Below the pieces are notes generated by a model that saw only the letters and a list, made by a program, of their open reading frames with translations, was not told the origin of the DNA and did no database searches. From Dehalococcoidia bacterium (GTDB lineage Bacteria; Chloroflexota; Dehalococcoidia; UBA2979), in the NCBI GenBank assembly GCA_020634075.1, contig JACKCJ010000001.1:77016-141015 (forward strand): a stretch of 64,000 nucleotides of DNA, given 5' to 3'. Positions 9,660 to 25,625 of this stretch are shown piece by piece; position 1 is the first letter of the stretch, and each line of letters starts with the position of its first letter. Made by a program: the position numbers and the translations under genes.

Positions 9660-11795
9660 GTGGTCACGTCCGTCGCGCGCCGCGTCCTCCCCGGCTCCCC
9701 GTACCCCCTCGGCGCGACCTGGGACGGTGTCGGGGTGAACTTCGCGCTGCTCTCCGAGCACGCAACTGCCGTCGAGTTATGTCTCTTCGACTCCCGTGAG
9801 CCCGGCGGTGAATCCGCGCGGATCGTCCTCGACGAACGCGACGGGATGATCTGGCACTGCTACCTGCCGGACGCTCGCCCCGGCCAGCTCTACGGCTATC
9901 GGGTCTACGGCCCGTGGGATCCGGAGGCCGGGCACCGATTCAACCCGCGCAAGCTGCTCCTCGACCCGTACGCGAAGGCGATTGGCCGCCCGATCCAGTG
10001 GGACAACGCCCTCTTCGGCTACCACCTCGAGGACGGCGACGACCTCGTGCAGGACAGCCGCGACAGCGCCCCGTTCGCGCCGCTCGCGGCCGTGATCGAG
10101 GGCTCGTTCACCTGGGGCGACGATCGGCCGCCCCGGCGGCGGTGGGAGCGAAGCGTCATCTACGAGGCCCACGTGAAGGGCCTGACGAAGCTCCATCCAG
10201 ACGTACCGGAGCACCTGCGGGGGACCTATGGCGCCCTCGCCACCCAGCCCGTCCTCGACCACCTGCTCTCCCTCGGCATCACCGCGGTCGAGTTGATGCC
10301 CGTGCACCACCGCGCGGACGACCGGCACCTGACGGACCGCGGGCTCTCGAACTACTGGGGCTACAACACGCTCGCGTTCTTCGCGCCAGATGCGCGCTAC
10401 GCACAGGGCGACGGCCTGAGCGCGGTCGACGAGTTCAAGACGATGGTGCGCGCCCTCCACGCGGTCGGCATCGAGGTGATCCTCGACGTGGTCTACAACC
10501 ACACCGCGGAGGGCAACCACCTCGGACCGACGCTCTCGTGGCGCGGCATCGACAACGCGTCGTACTACCGCACGGTGGCGGACGAGCCGCGGTACTACAT
10601 GGACTTCACCGGCACCGGCAACACGCTCAACCTCGCCCATCAGCGCGTGCTGCAGATGGTGATGGACAGCCTCCGGTACTGGGTGCTGGAGATGCACGTC
10701 GACGGCTTCCGGTTCGACCTCGCGAGCGCGCTCGCCCGCGAGCTGTACGACGTGAACCGGCTGTCGTCCTTCTTCGAGATCATCGCGCAGGACCCCGTGC
10801 TCGCCGGCGTGAAGCTGATCGCGGAGCCGTGGGACGTCGGCCCCGGCGGCTACCAGGTCGGCAACTTCCCCGTCGGCTGGGCGGAATGGAACGGCGAGTA
10901 CCGCGACAGCGTCCGGCGCTTCTGGCGCGGTGACGAGGGCCAGATCGCACCGATGGCGACCCGCGTCGCCGGCAGCGCCGACCTCTACGAGGCCAGCGGC
11001 CGCACACCGTACGCGAGCGTCAACTTCATCACCGCGCACGACGGCTTCACGCTCCGTGACCTCGTGACCTACGAGCAGAAGCACAACGAGGCCAACGGCG
11101 AAGAGAACCGCGACGGCCACAACGACAACCTCAGCCGCAACTTCGGCGTCGAGGGCGAGACCGACGATCCCGAGGTGAACCGCCTGCGGCGCCGGCAGCT
11201 GCGCAACTTCATCGTCACGCTGTTCGTCTCCCAGGGCGTCCCCATGCTCCTCGCGGGCGACGAGTTCGGGCGGACGCAGGAAGGCAACAACAACGCCTAC
11301 GCGCAGGACAACGAGATCTCGTGGCTGAACTGGGAATTGCTCCCGTGGCAGCGTGAGCTCCTCCGCTTCACGGGCGCGATGATCCGGCTCTTCCAGGAGC
11401 AGCCCGTCCTTCGGCGCCGGCGGTTCCTGCAGGGCCGTCGCGTGGTCGGCAGCGAGGCGCGCGACGTGTCGTGGTTCGTCCCGGACGGGCACGATGTCTC
11501 CGACGAGCAGTGGGACGAGGCGTGGCGGAAGTGCTTCGGCCTCCGTCTCGCCGGCGACGCGATCGAGGAGGTCGATCCCGAGGGACGCCCGATCGTCGGT
11601 GACACGCTCCTGATCCTCTTCAACGCGGGTGAGCAGGACGAACGCTTCACGCTGCCTTCGGAGCGACCCAAGGGCGGCTGGCAACTGCTCATCGACACGA
11701 CCGGTGCCCGGCGCGGGCGCTGGCCGGAGCCGAACTGCTTCCTCCTCGCCGCCCACTCCGCGGCCATCCTGCGCCAGAAGGGCCGAGGACGATGA
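9660..11795 (+). CDS. glgX: glycogen debranching enzyme GlgX (TreX)
   Basis: GTG start. GH13 motifs ([20 protein letters not shown]). N-terminal CBM48-like region. Confidence 0.9.
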
Positions 11796-23112: not shown

Positions 23113-25625
23113 ACGAGCCCCGCTCACGCGTGCTGAGCACCTACCGGCTCCAGCTCCATGCCGGGTTCACGTTCGACGACGCGCGCGAGGCGCTCCCGTA
23201 CCTCGCCGGCCTCGGCGTCTCGCACCTCTACCTGTCGCCGATCACCCAGGCGGCCCCCGGCAGCACGCACGGCTACGACGTCACCGACCCCACGCAGCTC
23301 AACACTGAGCTGGGGGGCACCGAGGCGTACGAGCGGCTCATCGCAGAGCAGCGCGCGCATGGCCTCGGCCAGATCGTGGACATCGTCCCCAACCACATGG
23401 GGATCGGGCCGAACAGCGGCAACAGCTACTGGGAGGACGTCCTCCGGCACGGGCCCGACTCGCCATACGCCGCCGTCTTCGATGTCGAGTGGGACACGCC
23501 GCCGCGCGGCCGCGTGGTGCTGCCCATCCTCGGCGCGACGCTCGACGACGTCATCGCGCACGGGGACATCGAGGTCGACCGGGACGCCGACGCGCTCGTG
23601 CTGTACGGCAACCCCCTCCCGCTCCGTCCCGGCAGTCTCGAGGAGTGGGGCGACGGCACCGATCTGCGCGACCTCGTCGCGCTGCAGCACTACCGCCTCG
23701 AGTACTGGCGTGCCGGCCAGGAGCGTGTCGACTACCGGCGCTTCTTCGCGATCGACGACCTGATCGGCGTCCGCGCGGAGGATCCCGAGGTCTTCGACCT
23801 GCTGCACCGTCTGCCGCTCGCGCTCGTCGAGCGCGGCGCCGTCGACGGCCTGCGCATCGACCACGTCGACGGCCTCCGCGATCCCGCCGCCTACCTCGCG
23901 AAGCTCCAGGCCCGCCTCGATGAAGCAGGACATCCAGGCGCCTACACCGTGGTCGAGAAGATCCTCGAGGCGGACGAACCGCTGCCGGACTGGGCCTGCG
24001 ACGGCACGACGGGCTACGACGCGATGAACGAGTTCACGCGCGTGCTCGTCGCGGCCAGCGCAGTGGAGTCCTTCGAGGCGATCGATCGAAACGCGACGGG
24101 CCGGGAGACGTCGTACGAAGAGGTCGCCGCCGAGGGACGCGCGCACGTCGTCCGCGACCTCCTCGGGGGACAGTTCGCGCGCCAGGCGCATCGCCTGTTC
24201 GAGGCGTCCCGCCCGCCCGGCGTCTCGGAGCCGGAGTTCACGGACGCGCTCCTCGACCTCCTCGCGCACGTCGAGGTCTACCGCACCTACCACCGCCTCG
24301 ACGAGCTCGATCCGCGGGCGCTCGCCGTCATCGGCGAGGCGGCCGATGCCCTTCTCCGCCGCTCTCCGGAGGCCACGCCCTCACCCGCGATCGAGGCGGC
24401 ACGACGCGTCCTCGCCACGCCGCCGGACGGCGAAGCCCGCGAGGTCGTCCTGTCGCTCCAGCAACTCATGCCGGCGGTGCAGGCGAAAGGCATCGAGGAT
24501 CGCGCCCTCTTCCGCTTCCGCCGCCTGCTCGCCCTGAACGAGGTCGGCGGCGATCCGGCGGCCTTCGGAGAGAGCGTCGAGGAGTTCCACCAACGGATGG
24601 CCGACCGCGCGGCGTCGTGGCCGCGACGGATGCTCGCGACCGCGACGCACGACCACAAGCTCGGTGAGGATGTCCGCGCGCGCCTCGCCGCGCTCTCGGA
24701 GGTACCCGAACTCTGGGGCGAAACCGTCGCCCGCGCGTTCGCGGTCTTCGACCGGCTGCAGGCGGAGTCGACTGATGTTGCCTCCGTGCACCCGTCCGAC
24801 CTCTACCTCCTGCTCCAGGCGATCGTCGGCGCCAGTCCCGAGGGCATGACGCAGGGGCGCTCCGACGATGACGCCTTCGCCGACCGCCTGGTCGCTTACG
24901 TGGTCAAGGCGCTCCGCGAGGCCGATGAGCGCACCTCGTGGGTCGGCGGAGACGAGGGCTACGAAGCCCGCGTGGCGAGCCTGGCCCGACGTGCGCTCGA
25001 CGATGACGGCCTGCGTGAGGCGCTCGCTCCGGTCATGCGCCTGGTCGTCCCTGCCGGCGCGATCAATGGACTCGCTCAGACGCTCCTCAAGCTCGCGGGG
25101 CCCGGTGTGCCAGACACGTACCAGGGCAACGAGCTGTGGGACCTCTCGCTCGTCGACCCCGACAACCGCCGCGCCGTCGACTTCGACCTGCGTCGCCGGC
25201 TCCTCGCTGAGGTCGACAACGTCGGCCCCGGGGAGCTCCTCGATGCGTGGCGAGACGCGCGGATCAAGCTCCGGCTGACCTCCGCCGTGCTGCGGACGCG
25301 GCGGGAGCATCACGCGCTGTTCCTTGACGGCTCGTACGAACCGCTGACGGCCGTTGGCGCGCGTGCGGAGCATGTCCTGAGCTACGCGAGGACCTCGGGA
25401 GACGACATCGCGGTCGCCGTCGCCCCGCGCTTCACCTCGGCGCTCAACGCGCCCGACGGGCGTTTCTGGGCGCCCGACTGGGCCATGACCGCGCTCGACC
25501 TGACGCAGTACGAGGTGGATGGGTGGCGCGAAGTCGTCACCGGCAGGTCGATCGCGGGCTCCAGCCTCGAGGAGATCCTCGGGCCGTTCCCGGTCGCGCT
25601 ACTGCTCGGCCGGCGCGTGCGCTGA
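23109..25625 (+). CDS. treY: malto-oligosyltrehalose synthase TreY
   Basis: GTG at 23109 overlaps the treZ stop (GTGA). Motifs STYRLQLH, IVDIVPNHMG and GLRIDHVDGL. Confidence 0.85.
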   Translation: MNEPRSRVLSTYRLQLHAGFTFDDAREALPYLAGLGVSHLYLSPITQAAPGSTHGYDVTDPTQLNTELGGTEAYERLIAEQRAHGLGQIVDIVPNHMGIGPNSGNSYWEDVLRHGPDSPYAAVFDVEWDTPPRGRVVLPILGATLDDVIAHGDIEVDRDADALVLYGNPLPLRPGSLEEWGDGTDLRDLVALQHYRLEYWRAGQERVDYRRFFAIDDLIGVRAEDPEVFDLLHRLPLALVERGAVDGLRIDHVDGLRDPAAYLAKLQARLDEAGHPGAYTVVEKILEADEPLPDWACDGTTGYDAMNEFTRVLVAASAVESFEAIDRNATGRETSYEEVAAEGRAHVVRDLLGGQFARQAHRLFEASRPPGVSEPEFTDALLDLLAHVEVYRTYHRLDELDPRALAVIGEAADALLRRSPEATPSPAIEAARRVLATPPDGEAREVVLSLQQLMPAVQAKGIEDRALFRFRRLLALNEVGGDPAAFGESVEEFHQRMADRAASWPRRMLATATHDHKLGEDVRARLAALSEVPELWGETVARAFAVFDRLQAESTDVASVHPSDLYLLLQAIVGASPEGMTQGRSDDDAFADRLVAYVVKALREADERTSWVGGDEGYEARVASLARRALDDDGLREALAPVMRLVVPAGAINGLAQTLLKLAGPGVPDTYQGNELWDLSLVDPDNRRAVDFDLRRRLLAEVDNVGPGELLDAWRDARIKLRLTSAVLRTRREHHALFLDGSYEPLTAVGARAEHVLSYARTSGDDIAVAVAPRFTSALNAPDGRFWAPDWAMTALDLTQYEVDGWREVVTGRSIAGSSLEEILGPFPVALLLGRRVR

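Follow-up and report, generated by a model that had tools for sequence, protein, structure and literature searches.

A run of seven overlapping genes in an uncultured Dehalococcoidia bacterium is likely to form one operon that interconverts trehalose and branched alpha-glucan. The genes occupy positions 9660-25625 of the window, by which we mean the whole 64,000-nt stretch of DNA that was analyzed. All are encoded on the + strand in the order glgX, glgE, treS-pep2, glgB, GH57, treZ, and treY, and each frame is open from its start to its stop. The co-directional run had been noted in a preliminary description of this DNA, and its coordinates proved exact in our check of the open reading frames. 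The features are as follows.

9449..9659, no strand: upstream intergenic region common to glgX and a divergent CoA-transferase gene; presumed promoter/operator
9660..11795, +: glgX (treX-type), glycogen debranching enzyme, 711 aa, first gene of the proposed operon
11792..13828, +: glgE, alpha-1,4-glucan:maltose-1-phosphate maltosyltransferase, 678 aa; ATGA overlap with glgX
13825..17268, +: treS-pep2 fusion, trehalose synthase and probable maltokinase, 1147 aa; ATGA overlap with glgE
17265..19196, +: glgB, GH13 branching enzyme, 643 aa; GTGA overlap with treS-pep2
19193..21226, +: GH57 enzyme with 4-alpha-glucanotransferase (AmyA) architecture, 677 aa; GTGA overlap with glgB
21223..23112, +: treZ, malto-oligosyltrehalose trehalohydrolase, 629 aa; ATGA overlap with GH57
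23109..25625, +: treY, malto-oligosyltrehalose synthase, 838 aa, final gene; GTGA overlap with treZ
25599..26447, -: convergent MpaB/Lcp-type oxygenase gene (Pfam MPAB_Lcp_cat, E = 1.7e-58), the 3' boundary, outside the pathway

The glgX start is a GTG that immediately follows an in-frame stop. The genes flanking the cluster lie on the opposite strand and are unrelated to the pathway; the 3' ends of treY and the oxygenase gene overlap by 27 nt. No glgA, glgC, otsA, otsB, or glgP was found in the 64,000-nt window.

Gene content of the cluster

Profile and structure-sequence searches bore out all seven of the gene identities first proposed, with the Pep2 part falling below the NCBIfam cutoff. 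Equivalog models scored above their cutoffs for GlgX (TIGR02100, 1016.9 bits; cutoff, 640.9), the TreS part of the fusion (TIGR02456, 937.9 bits; cutoff, 678.35), GlgB (NF003811, 959.7 bits; cutoff, 741; residues 9-629 on model positions 2-618), TreZ (TIGR02402, 636.4 bits; cutoff, 538.8), and TreY (TIGR02401, 875.6 bits; cutoff, 498.65; residues 9-833 on model positions 2-837), and both enzymes of the TreY-TreZ pathway are therefore encoded. GlgX also carries the Pfam CBM_48 and alpha-amylase catalytic domains. GlgE matches Pfam GlgE_dom_N_S (PF11896, 171 bits) and GLGE_C (PF21702, 76 bits), aligns over residues 16-657 with Streptomyces GlgEI (PDB 4U2Y, E = 5e-191), and keeps the RVDNPHTKP and FLAEAFT blocks of that alignment; glgB lies two genes 3' of glgE, with overlapping junctions. 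The C-terminal 568 aa of TreS-Pep2 are probably a maltokinase (Pep2/Mak), judging from a TIGR02457 score of 344.6 bits that is slightly below the cutoff of 375.05, a Pfam Mak_N_cap domain, and a match to mycobacterial maltokinases (4U94, E = 7.8e-33) in which HGDYHLGQ and DFGGE align to HGDLHLGQ and DFEGE.

The GH57 protein contains the Pfam domains Glyco_hydro_57 (PF03065), AmyA-A_glucT_m (PF09094), and AmyA-gluTrfs_C (PF09095) and matches the Thermococcus litoralis 4-alpha-glucanotransferase (PDB 1K1W) with E = 1.9e-105. It shares the catalytic and middle domains of that enzyme, and E121 and D211, inside WLTERVW and DDxEKFG blocks, align with E123 and D214 of 1K1W, which we take to be the catalytic Glu and Asp (nucleophile and acid/base). 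It differs from 1K1W in that the C-terminal domain aligns weakly (6 bits), and in being a bacterial protein of predicted activity, encoded at 70% G+C within a GlgE/TreYZ operon. We propose that the protein is a functional analogue of MalQ, of the 4-alpha-glucanotransferase type. Could it instead be an endo-acting alpha-amylase that provides TreY substrates, or a second branching enzyme? The Pfam family name, "alpha-amylase/4-alpha-glucanotransferase," covers the former activity, close homologues are named differently between sources, and few GH57 "amylases" have been characterized, some of which might branch (PMC11046441). We nevertheless consider this unlikely: the T. litoralis transferase is the only solved homologue, the three-domain architecture is that of the transferase with no other C-terminal domain in the Pfam scan, the cluster already encodes a GH13 GlgB, and the position between glgB and treZ-treY parallels that of malQ between treZ and treY in Pseudomonas (PMC8084333).

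Junctions, start codons, and upstream region

The geometry of translational coupling, in which the stop codon of one gene overlaps the start codon of the next on the same strand, is present at all six junctions. A 4-nt start/stop overlap had been claimed for each of them, and all six are found at exactly the positions given, as ATGA at 11792, 13825, and 21223 and as GTGA at 17265, 19193, and 23109, with no gaps between genes. Within the cluster every junction (6 of 6) has a -4 start, whereas elsewhere in the window such a start is possible at only 2 of 22 co-directional neighbor pairs (Fisher exact p = 7.4e-5). The ATGA/GTGA tetranucleotide by itself is weak evidence for an overlap start, and five of the six downstream frames extend open further upstream, so that longer start alternatives exist; the start calls therefore draw on other evidence. 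The -4 start was found again at matching junctions of orthologous loci (52-80% protein identity), including all six loci compared for glgB (as ATG in L006) and all six compared for treZ, and independent gene calls in a close relative, L084, gave 4-nt overlaps at every junction. The GH57, TreZ, and TreY translations from the starts at 19193, 21223, and 23109 agree residue for residue with GenBank proteins MCB9490521.1 (677 aa), MCB9490522.1 (629 aa), and MCB9490523.1 (838 aa), respectively. Family profiles and PDB homologues start 2 to 34 residues from each proposed N terminus.

Some starts are less firmly placed. A search of the public protein collection did not find the exact 643-aa GlgB and 678-aa GlgE sequences, and the depositor may therefore have chosen other starts for these two genes; an alternative GTG lies 9 nt downstream of the glgB -4 start. 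The strongest Shine-Dalgarno-like site of the cluster precedes treS-pep2 (-10 kcal/mol); such pairing was not found at the GTG starts of GH57 and treY, whose positions are consequently set by comparison. The overlap itself is not strictly conserved: some relatives have a short gap of +2 to +28 nt at several junctions. These points, together with the A or G that stands before half (6 of 12) of the window's TGA stops outside the cluster, would fit a reading in which gene packing and composition produced the overlaps as a neutral side effect, without functional coupling, and some GTGA starts are misassigned. We judge that reading improbable, however, given the excess of -4 starts over the rest of the window, the use of ATG at the -4 codon by some orthologues of genes that begin with GTG in the window, the choice of the same GH57, TreZ, and TreY starts by GenBank and independent callers, the six overlaps of L084, and experiments in bacteria and archaea in which translation was coupled through overlaps of this kind (PMC6728339).

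The upstream region (9449-9659) contains a palindrome, GTTGC-AGGCTC-GCAAC, at 9503-9518, and both the palindrome and a GACACCCGAGCG block are kept in the orthologous region of L084. This region gave no match to the sigma-70 consensus, and neither it nor the cluster matched Rfam. Internal promoters or terminators had been named beforehand as findings that would contradict a single transcript; simple scans, which rely on E. coli-type consensus sequences and have low power in a 70% G+C Chloroflexota genome, detected no promoter-like site in 8800-26600 and no internal + strand terminator-like site.

Conservation and origin of the arrangement

A synteny check showed that the arrangement is conserved in Dehalococcoidia relatives, in which the seven-gene order recurs at about ten further loci, either complete (L001/L004, L005, L007, L084, L087, and L090) or partial and ended by a contig end (L002, L003, L006, and L089). 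Outside the clade, GH57 homologues have at most 38% identity and do not adjoin these genes, and neither treY nor treZ nor glgX was near GH57 in any of 76 more distant GH57 loci. The arrangement is thus a lineage-specific variant within a clade of uncultured Dehalococcoidia. One related genome, GCA_964479165.1, carries the genes as two modules: glgX is joined to glgE-treS/pep2-glgB, with no treZ or treY within the 5 kb covered downstream of glgB (L086), and treZ-treY form a separate pair with a 4-nt overlap on another contig, without glgX (L088). These split modules may represent either the ancestral state or a secondary split. Because they separate at glgB|GH57, the natural seam of the cluster lies there and not at glgX|glgE.

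Is the run then one unit or two? Conservation and overlaps together fit a single operon with translational coupling. The alternative is that glgX-glgE-treS/pep2-glgB and GH57-treZ-treY are separate functional units, with an internal promoter in the 3' end of glgB and the two arms expressed independently. The modules of GCA_964479165.1 are divided at this very seam, the GH57 start has the weakest Shine-Dalgarno-like signal, the glgB/GH57 junction is a 7- to 28-nt gap in L005 and L006, and separate control would avoid a futile cycle, a need for regulation that has been stressed for this pathway (PMC11046441). Against this, L084, L002, L004, and L007 have the same 4-nt overlap at the seam as the window, the promoter scan (a weak test) gave no match, and an internal promoter would supplement read-through from upstream rather than replace it. 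We therefore assign the two-unit arrangement a low probability and retain the single operon. The question of origin is distinct. It had been suggested that the whole GlgE module, together with the GH57 gene, inserted into an ancestral treX-treY-treZ operon and so parted treX from treYZ. Operons of the treX-treY-treZ type exist in actinobacteria, and here the treX-type glgX and the treZ/treY pair stand at opposite ends of the cluster, as such a split would leave them. The suggestion did not hold up. The cluster departs from the canonical contiguity and order, with glgX followed by four genes and then by treZ-treY, and a single insertion into X-Y-Z cannot produce treZ before treY. Moreover, glgX travels with the glgE module in GCA_964479165.1, apart from treZ-treY, and none of the 76 distant GH57 loci has treY, treZ, or glgX nearby. 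This origin is very improbable.

Proposed function and relation to known systems

In the synthesis arm, the TreS-Pep2 fusion would isomerize trehalose to maltose and phosphorylate it with ATP to maltose-1-phosphate, which GlgE would polymerize and to which GlgB would add branches. In the mobilization arm, GlgX would take off branches, TreY would convert the reducing-end linkage of the freed chains, and TreZ would then cut trehalose off. The cytoplasmic GH57 enzyme, at the place held by MalQ in Pseudomonas, most likely acts on the short malto-oligosaccharides that TreZ leaves, disproportionating them into chains long enough again for TreY or GlgE, and it may also supply maltose for Pep2. Transcription probably starts in the 211-bp region upstream of glgX and translation is probably serial, with ribosomes that end on each TGA reinitiating on the overlapping ATG or GTG. 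What the sequence shows is the identity of the genes, their overlaps, and their conservation; that one transcript is made, that its translation is coupled, what the GH57 enzyme does, and which way flux runs are what we infer here. Stoichiometric co-expression would be a further step, as the overlaps favor coupling but do not fix ratios. If both arms are co-expressed, control of net flux would have to come after translation, from the levels of trehalose, ATP, and phosphate or from regulation of the enzymes, and co-expression could risk an ATP-wasting cycle or imply hidden internal regulation. A bolder and doubtful version is that both arms are obligatorily co-translated from one message, possibly in a physical multienzyme assembly, with flux direction set entirely after translation and a clade-specific GH57 transferase replacing MalQ in recycling short chains and supplying maltose or primers. 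Were this true, the clade would deal with the futile cycle by a regulatory route unlike that of Pseudomonas and actinobacteria, whose operons are split.

Both the GlgE pathway and the TreY/TreZ route are familiar, as is the clustering of their genes. In Pseudomonas aeruginosa PAO1, glgE-treS/pep2-glgB (PA2151-2153) and glgA-treZ-malQ-treY-glgX (PA2165-2160) form two predicted operons, and this same gene set supports a working trehalose/alpha-glucan network in which MalQ feeds maltose to Pep2 (PMC8084333). The Dehalococcoidia cluster resembles it in encoding GlgE, a fused TreS/Pep2, GlgB, TreZ, TreY, GlgX, and an alpha-glucanotransferase, in having treZ before treY with the transferase gene beside them, and in its predicted logic of a trehalose-to-alpha-glucan network with a transferase bypass. 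It differs in phylum (Chloroflexota, class Dehalococcoidia), in being a single run of overlapping genes, in lacking glgA, in using a GH57 rather than a GH77 MalQ transferase, and in having glgX first, adjoining glgE, rather than last, after treY.

Enzyme families and chemistry are those of actinobacteria such as Mycobacterium and Streptomyces (PMC11046441). As in their GlgE pathway, glgE and glgB are co-operonic, which is reported to hold for all bacteria with this pathway (PMC11046441), and GlgE matches S. coelicolor GlgEI with E = 5e-191. Mycobacteria have separate treS and pep2 and their mobilization genes elsewhere, whereas here all genes are contiguous and TreS-Pep2 is fused; unlike in the actinobacterial treX-treY-treZ, treZ comes before treY and glgX stands five genes away. 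ATGA-type overlapping pairs are coupled by termination-reinitiation and often encode subunits of complexes (PMC6728339, PMC10666635). The cluster shares their -4 geometry at six of six junctions, and its six overlaps in a row, joining seven large monomeric-type enzymes, make a longer run than usual; among these enzymes a complex is known for TreS with Pep2 only.

The pathway gene content is already known, and what differs is the packaging: a single unit of seven overlapping genes encodes the cycle in both directions, and a GH57 enzyme stands in for MalQ. The cluster leaves the current understanding of the pathway unchanged. If it is truly one coupled message, it would offer a natural test case for avoiding an ATP-wasting trehalose/glucan cycle without transcriptional separation, and the cluster further suggests that environmental Chloroflexota of this clade depend on trehalose and alpha-glucan either to withstand stress or as a store. 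It also provides a functional setting for a GH57 subfamily that goes in GenBank only by "DUF1926 domain-containing protein," the name under which MCB9490521.1 is deposited. The window is part of a GenBank Dehalococcoidia MAG that already assigns names to the genes of the cluster.

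Layout and gene identities

The genes glgX, glgE, treS-pep2, glgB, GH57, treZ and treY follow one another in that order as seven open reading frames without internal stops. The preliminary description had placed at each of their six junctions a start codon that overlaps the upstream stop by 4 nt (a -4 start), and all six proved exact.

9660-25625, plus strand: seven-gene cluster (711, 678, 1147, 643, 677, 629 and 838 aa, in gene order)
11792, 13825 and 21223, plus strand: ATGA overlaps (glgX/glgE, glgE/treS-pep2 and GH57/treZ)
17265, 19193 and 23109, plus strand: GTGA overlaps (treS-pep2/glgB, glgB/GH57 and treZ/treY)
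25599-26447, minus strand: convergent MpaB/Lcp-type oxygenase gene, whose 3' end shares 27 nt with that of treY (25599-25625)

The seven frames are marked as coding by their codon-position G+C, with GC3 of 0.83 to 0.93. On the 5' side, two minus-strand CoA-transferase genes are followed by a 211-bp intergenic region that leads to glgX. Because these genes and the oxygenase are unrelated to the cluster, it stands as a sharply bounded unit amid chromosomal genes. Could the cluster have arrived on a mobile element? We rejected such horizontal transfer on the basis of the ordinary chromosomal flanks and a G+C content of ∼70% that is uniform along the window.

All seven gene calls were borne out by profile and structure-sequence matches, with five proteins exceeding curated NCBIfam equivalog cutoffs.

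Table. Proteins exceeding NCBIfam equivalog cutoffs (protein, model, score, cutoff)
GlgX, TIGR02100, 1017 bits, 641
TreS, TIGR02456, 938 bits, 678
GlgB, NF003811, 960 bits, 741
TreZ, TIGR02402, 636 bits, 539
TreY, TIGR02401, 876 bits, 499

GlgE carries the diagnostic N/S and C domains and matched the solved Streptomyces GlgEI structures (E = 5e-191). In the third protein, the C-terminal half scored 345 bits against TIGR02457, slightly below the cutoff of 375; it also matched mycobacterial maltokinases (E = 8e-33) in an alignment that pairs the HGDxHxGQ and DFxGE blocks. Judged from these alignments, the third protein is best read as a TreS-Pep2 fusion, the commonest form according to a Pseudomonas paper (PMC8084333). 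The fifth protein is composed of a GH57 catalytic domain, an AmyA middle domain and an AmyA C-terminal domain. Among solved structures its sole relative is the 4-alpha-glucanotransferase of Thermococcus litoralis (1K1W, E = 2e-105), and its residues E121 and D211 align with E123 and D214 of that enzyme, which we take to be the catalytic residues. A role as branching enzyme was rejected, since the domain architecture is wrong for it and a GH13 GlgB is already present in the cluster. The parts of the cluster are all known families, already named by PGAP in the source record.

Overlapping junctions and expression signals

A -4 start is possible at all six cluster junctions versus 2 of the 22 co-directional junctions found elsewhere in the window (Fisher p = 7.4e-5). 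The tetranucleotide alone is cheap evidence, since A or G precedes half of the TGA stops outside the cluster (6/12), and five of the six downstream frames stay open further upstream. Across orthologous loci in other genomes (handles beginning with L) with 52 to 80% protein identity, the -4 start was kept at the same junctions, sometimes with ATG replacing the GTG of the window. At the treS-pep2 junction of L002, one of these loci, and upstream of it, the -4 codon is the sole candidate start, and gene calls made independently in L084, a close relative, yielded a 4-nt overlap at every one of the six junctions. GenBank entries MCB9490521.1, MCB9490522.1 and MCB9490523.1 are identical to GH57, TreZ and TreY as read from the starts of the preliminary description. 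An exact-sequence look-up in the protein collection returned no identical entry for the 643-aa GlgB or the 678-aa GlgE; in glgB, another GTG occurs 9 nt downstream of the -4 start. Each of the seven cluster genes has TGA as its stop codon, while the other 34 listed genes use TAG (21), TGA (12) or TAA (1). This bias follows from the geometry of the ATGA and GTGA overlaps in the first six genes; the last gene, treY, ends in TGA as well.

Overlapping ATGA pairs couple translation through termination-reinitiation (PMC6728339, PMC10666635). SD-like pairing was strong at treS (-10 kcal/mol), moderate at glgE, glgB and treZ, and absent at the GTG starts of GH57 and treY (-2.1 and -2.9 kcal/mol). If these two GTG starts are correctly assigned, they would rely most on re-initiation by terminating ribosomes. 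For the cluster as a whole, a single transcript and translational coupling are probable, and fixed expression ratios are possible.

A scan of positions 8800-26600 with the sigma-70 consensus found no promoter-like sites, a result that says little for this phylum. A scan of the same interval for intrinsic terminators, equally uninformative for the phylum, found a single minus-strand hairpin (14566) against an expectation of 3.6 from shuffled sequences; between treY and the oxygenase gene, which overlap by 27 nt, there is no intergenic space to hold a terminator. Rfam gave no match at E <= 0.1 in 9000-26500 and hence no sign of a riboswitch or leader. Upstream of glgX, the intergenic palindrome GTTGC-AGGCTC-GCAAC (9503-9518) and a nearby GACACCCGAGCG block are kept in the orthologous region of L084, where the surroundings have diverged. 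As a possible operator or promoter element, the palindrome could serve either glgX or the divergently oriented CoA-transferase gene.

Distribution and origin of the gene order

The window itself belongs to a Dehalococcoidia MAG in GenBank. Homologues of the GH57 protein with at least 52% identity came from Dehalococcoidia MAGs alone, apart from a single 8-kb contig that was assigned to an Acidimicrobiia bin. Gene order was the same in every readable locus of this set as far as contigs extend (L001/L004, L002, L003, L005, L006, L007, L084, L087, L089 and L090), and in L084 the flanking genes are shared as well. The next 76 GH57 loci (<= 38% identity, many phyla) lacked all six partner genes in their neighbourhood, except that L073 has a glgB neighbour. 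These data indicate that the cluster is conserved as a trait of a single clade and that its GH57 protein forms a distinct subfamily. Some members of the clade have gaps of 2 to 28 nt at several junctions, so the all-overlap state was seen only in the closest readable relatives of the window, L084 and L002.

The treS-pep2 gene is split into two or three frames in L007 (4844-8037), L090 (4730-7995) and L087 (11986-15289); treY in L090 and several other genes in L087 are also broken. These broken frames may reflect assembly errors or genuine pseudogenes.

How did the seven-gene order arise? The preliminary description had proposed that a treXYZ operon was split by insertion, and two observations speak against this origin. 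The order is treZ-treY, which a single insertion into X-Y-Z cannot give, and the modules of another genome, GCA_964479165.1, divide elsewhere. There, locus L086 holds a glgX-glgE-treS/pep2-glgB block, with treZ, treY and GH57 absent from the available sequence after it, and L088, on a separate contig, holds treZ and treY as a pair that overlaps by 4 nt and lacks glgX. The separate modules place the seam at glgB|GH57. This genome may retain the ancestral state, in which case a fusion made the seven-gene unit, or it may have undergone a secondary split. In a neighbor-joining tree of GlgE and GlgB (1077 ungapped columns), it fell with weak support among the seven-gene loci, which were monophyletic in 28 of 200 bootstraps.

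A different GlgE cluster was seen in Candidatus Manganitrophus (L085, GCA_021651055.1, 10001-21241), in the order glgE, a 547-aa stand-alone TreS-like GH13, a 446-aa protein without Pfam match, a mechanosensitive-channel-domain protein, treS-pep2 and glgB. The channel gene within this trehalose/glucan cluster hints at a link to osmotic stress.

Proposed function and the wider window

By homology, TreS-Pep2, GlgE and GlgB would convert trehalose via maltose and maltose-1-phosphate to branched alpha-glucan, and GlgX, TreY and TreZ would return glucan to trehalose. Such a network has been described in actinobacteria and shown genetically and biochemically in Pseudomonas aeruginosa (PMC8084333, PMC11046441). 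Taken together, the two P. aeruginosa operons have the gene content of the cluster plus glgA, and they encode GH77 MalQ where the cluster encodes GH57. The P. aeruginosa malQ sits between treZ and treY, and its product disproportionates malto-oligosaccharides and can yield maltose that is phosphorylated by Pep2 (PMC8084333). Because the GH57 gene is placed equivalently, we infer by analogy a MalQ-like role for it in malto-oligosaccharide disproportionation and maltose supply. A search for glgA, glgC, glgP, otsA/B and malQ in the rest of the window found none. In two relatives, L001 (1-575) and L090 (1-64), glgX adjoins a GT20 (OtsA-type trehalose-6-phosphate synthase) gene, which is co-directional in the former and divergent in the latter; this suggests trehalose made via OtsA/OtsB as the entry point. 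In the window and in L084, the two CoA-transferase genes take that position.

The cycle would cost one ATP per maltose. Given this price and the predicted co-expression of both arms, control would be post-translational or act through an undetected internal promoter; regulation of the opposing arms is needed yet poorly known (review PMC11046441). Our literature search found no paper on a GlgE/TreYZ cluster containing GH57 or on the GlgE pathway in Chloroflexota. The cluster is a clean, conserved, one-unit packaging of a known cycle, modest in import, and it supplies context for an uncharacterised GH57 subfamily.

Elsewhere in the window, neither a tRNA nor an Rfam match was found in ∼1.2 kb (47480-48710) between a poly(A) polymerase/CCA-adding-type gene and a DinG-like helicase-exonuclease gene, and no ORF there passed the GC3 filter. 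Two ORFs with good coding signal had no Pfam match (55365-56789, plus strand, 474 aa; 52504-52920, minus strand, 138 aa). A bacterial large SRP RNA (RF01854, 156 bits) lies at 55016-55276 on the minus strand, just upstream of a KsgA-type rRNA methyltransferase gene. Because the RNA shares sequence with the 5' portion of the open frame 53858-55102, the methyltransferase gene must begin further downstream.
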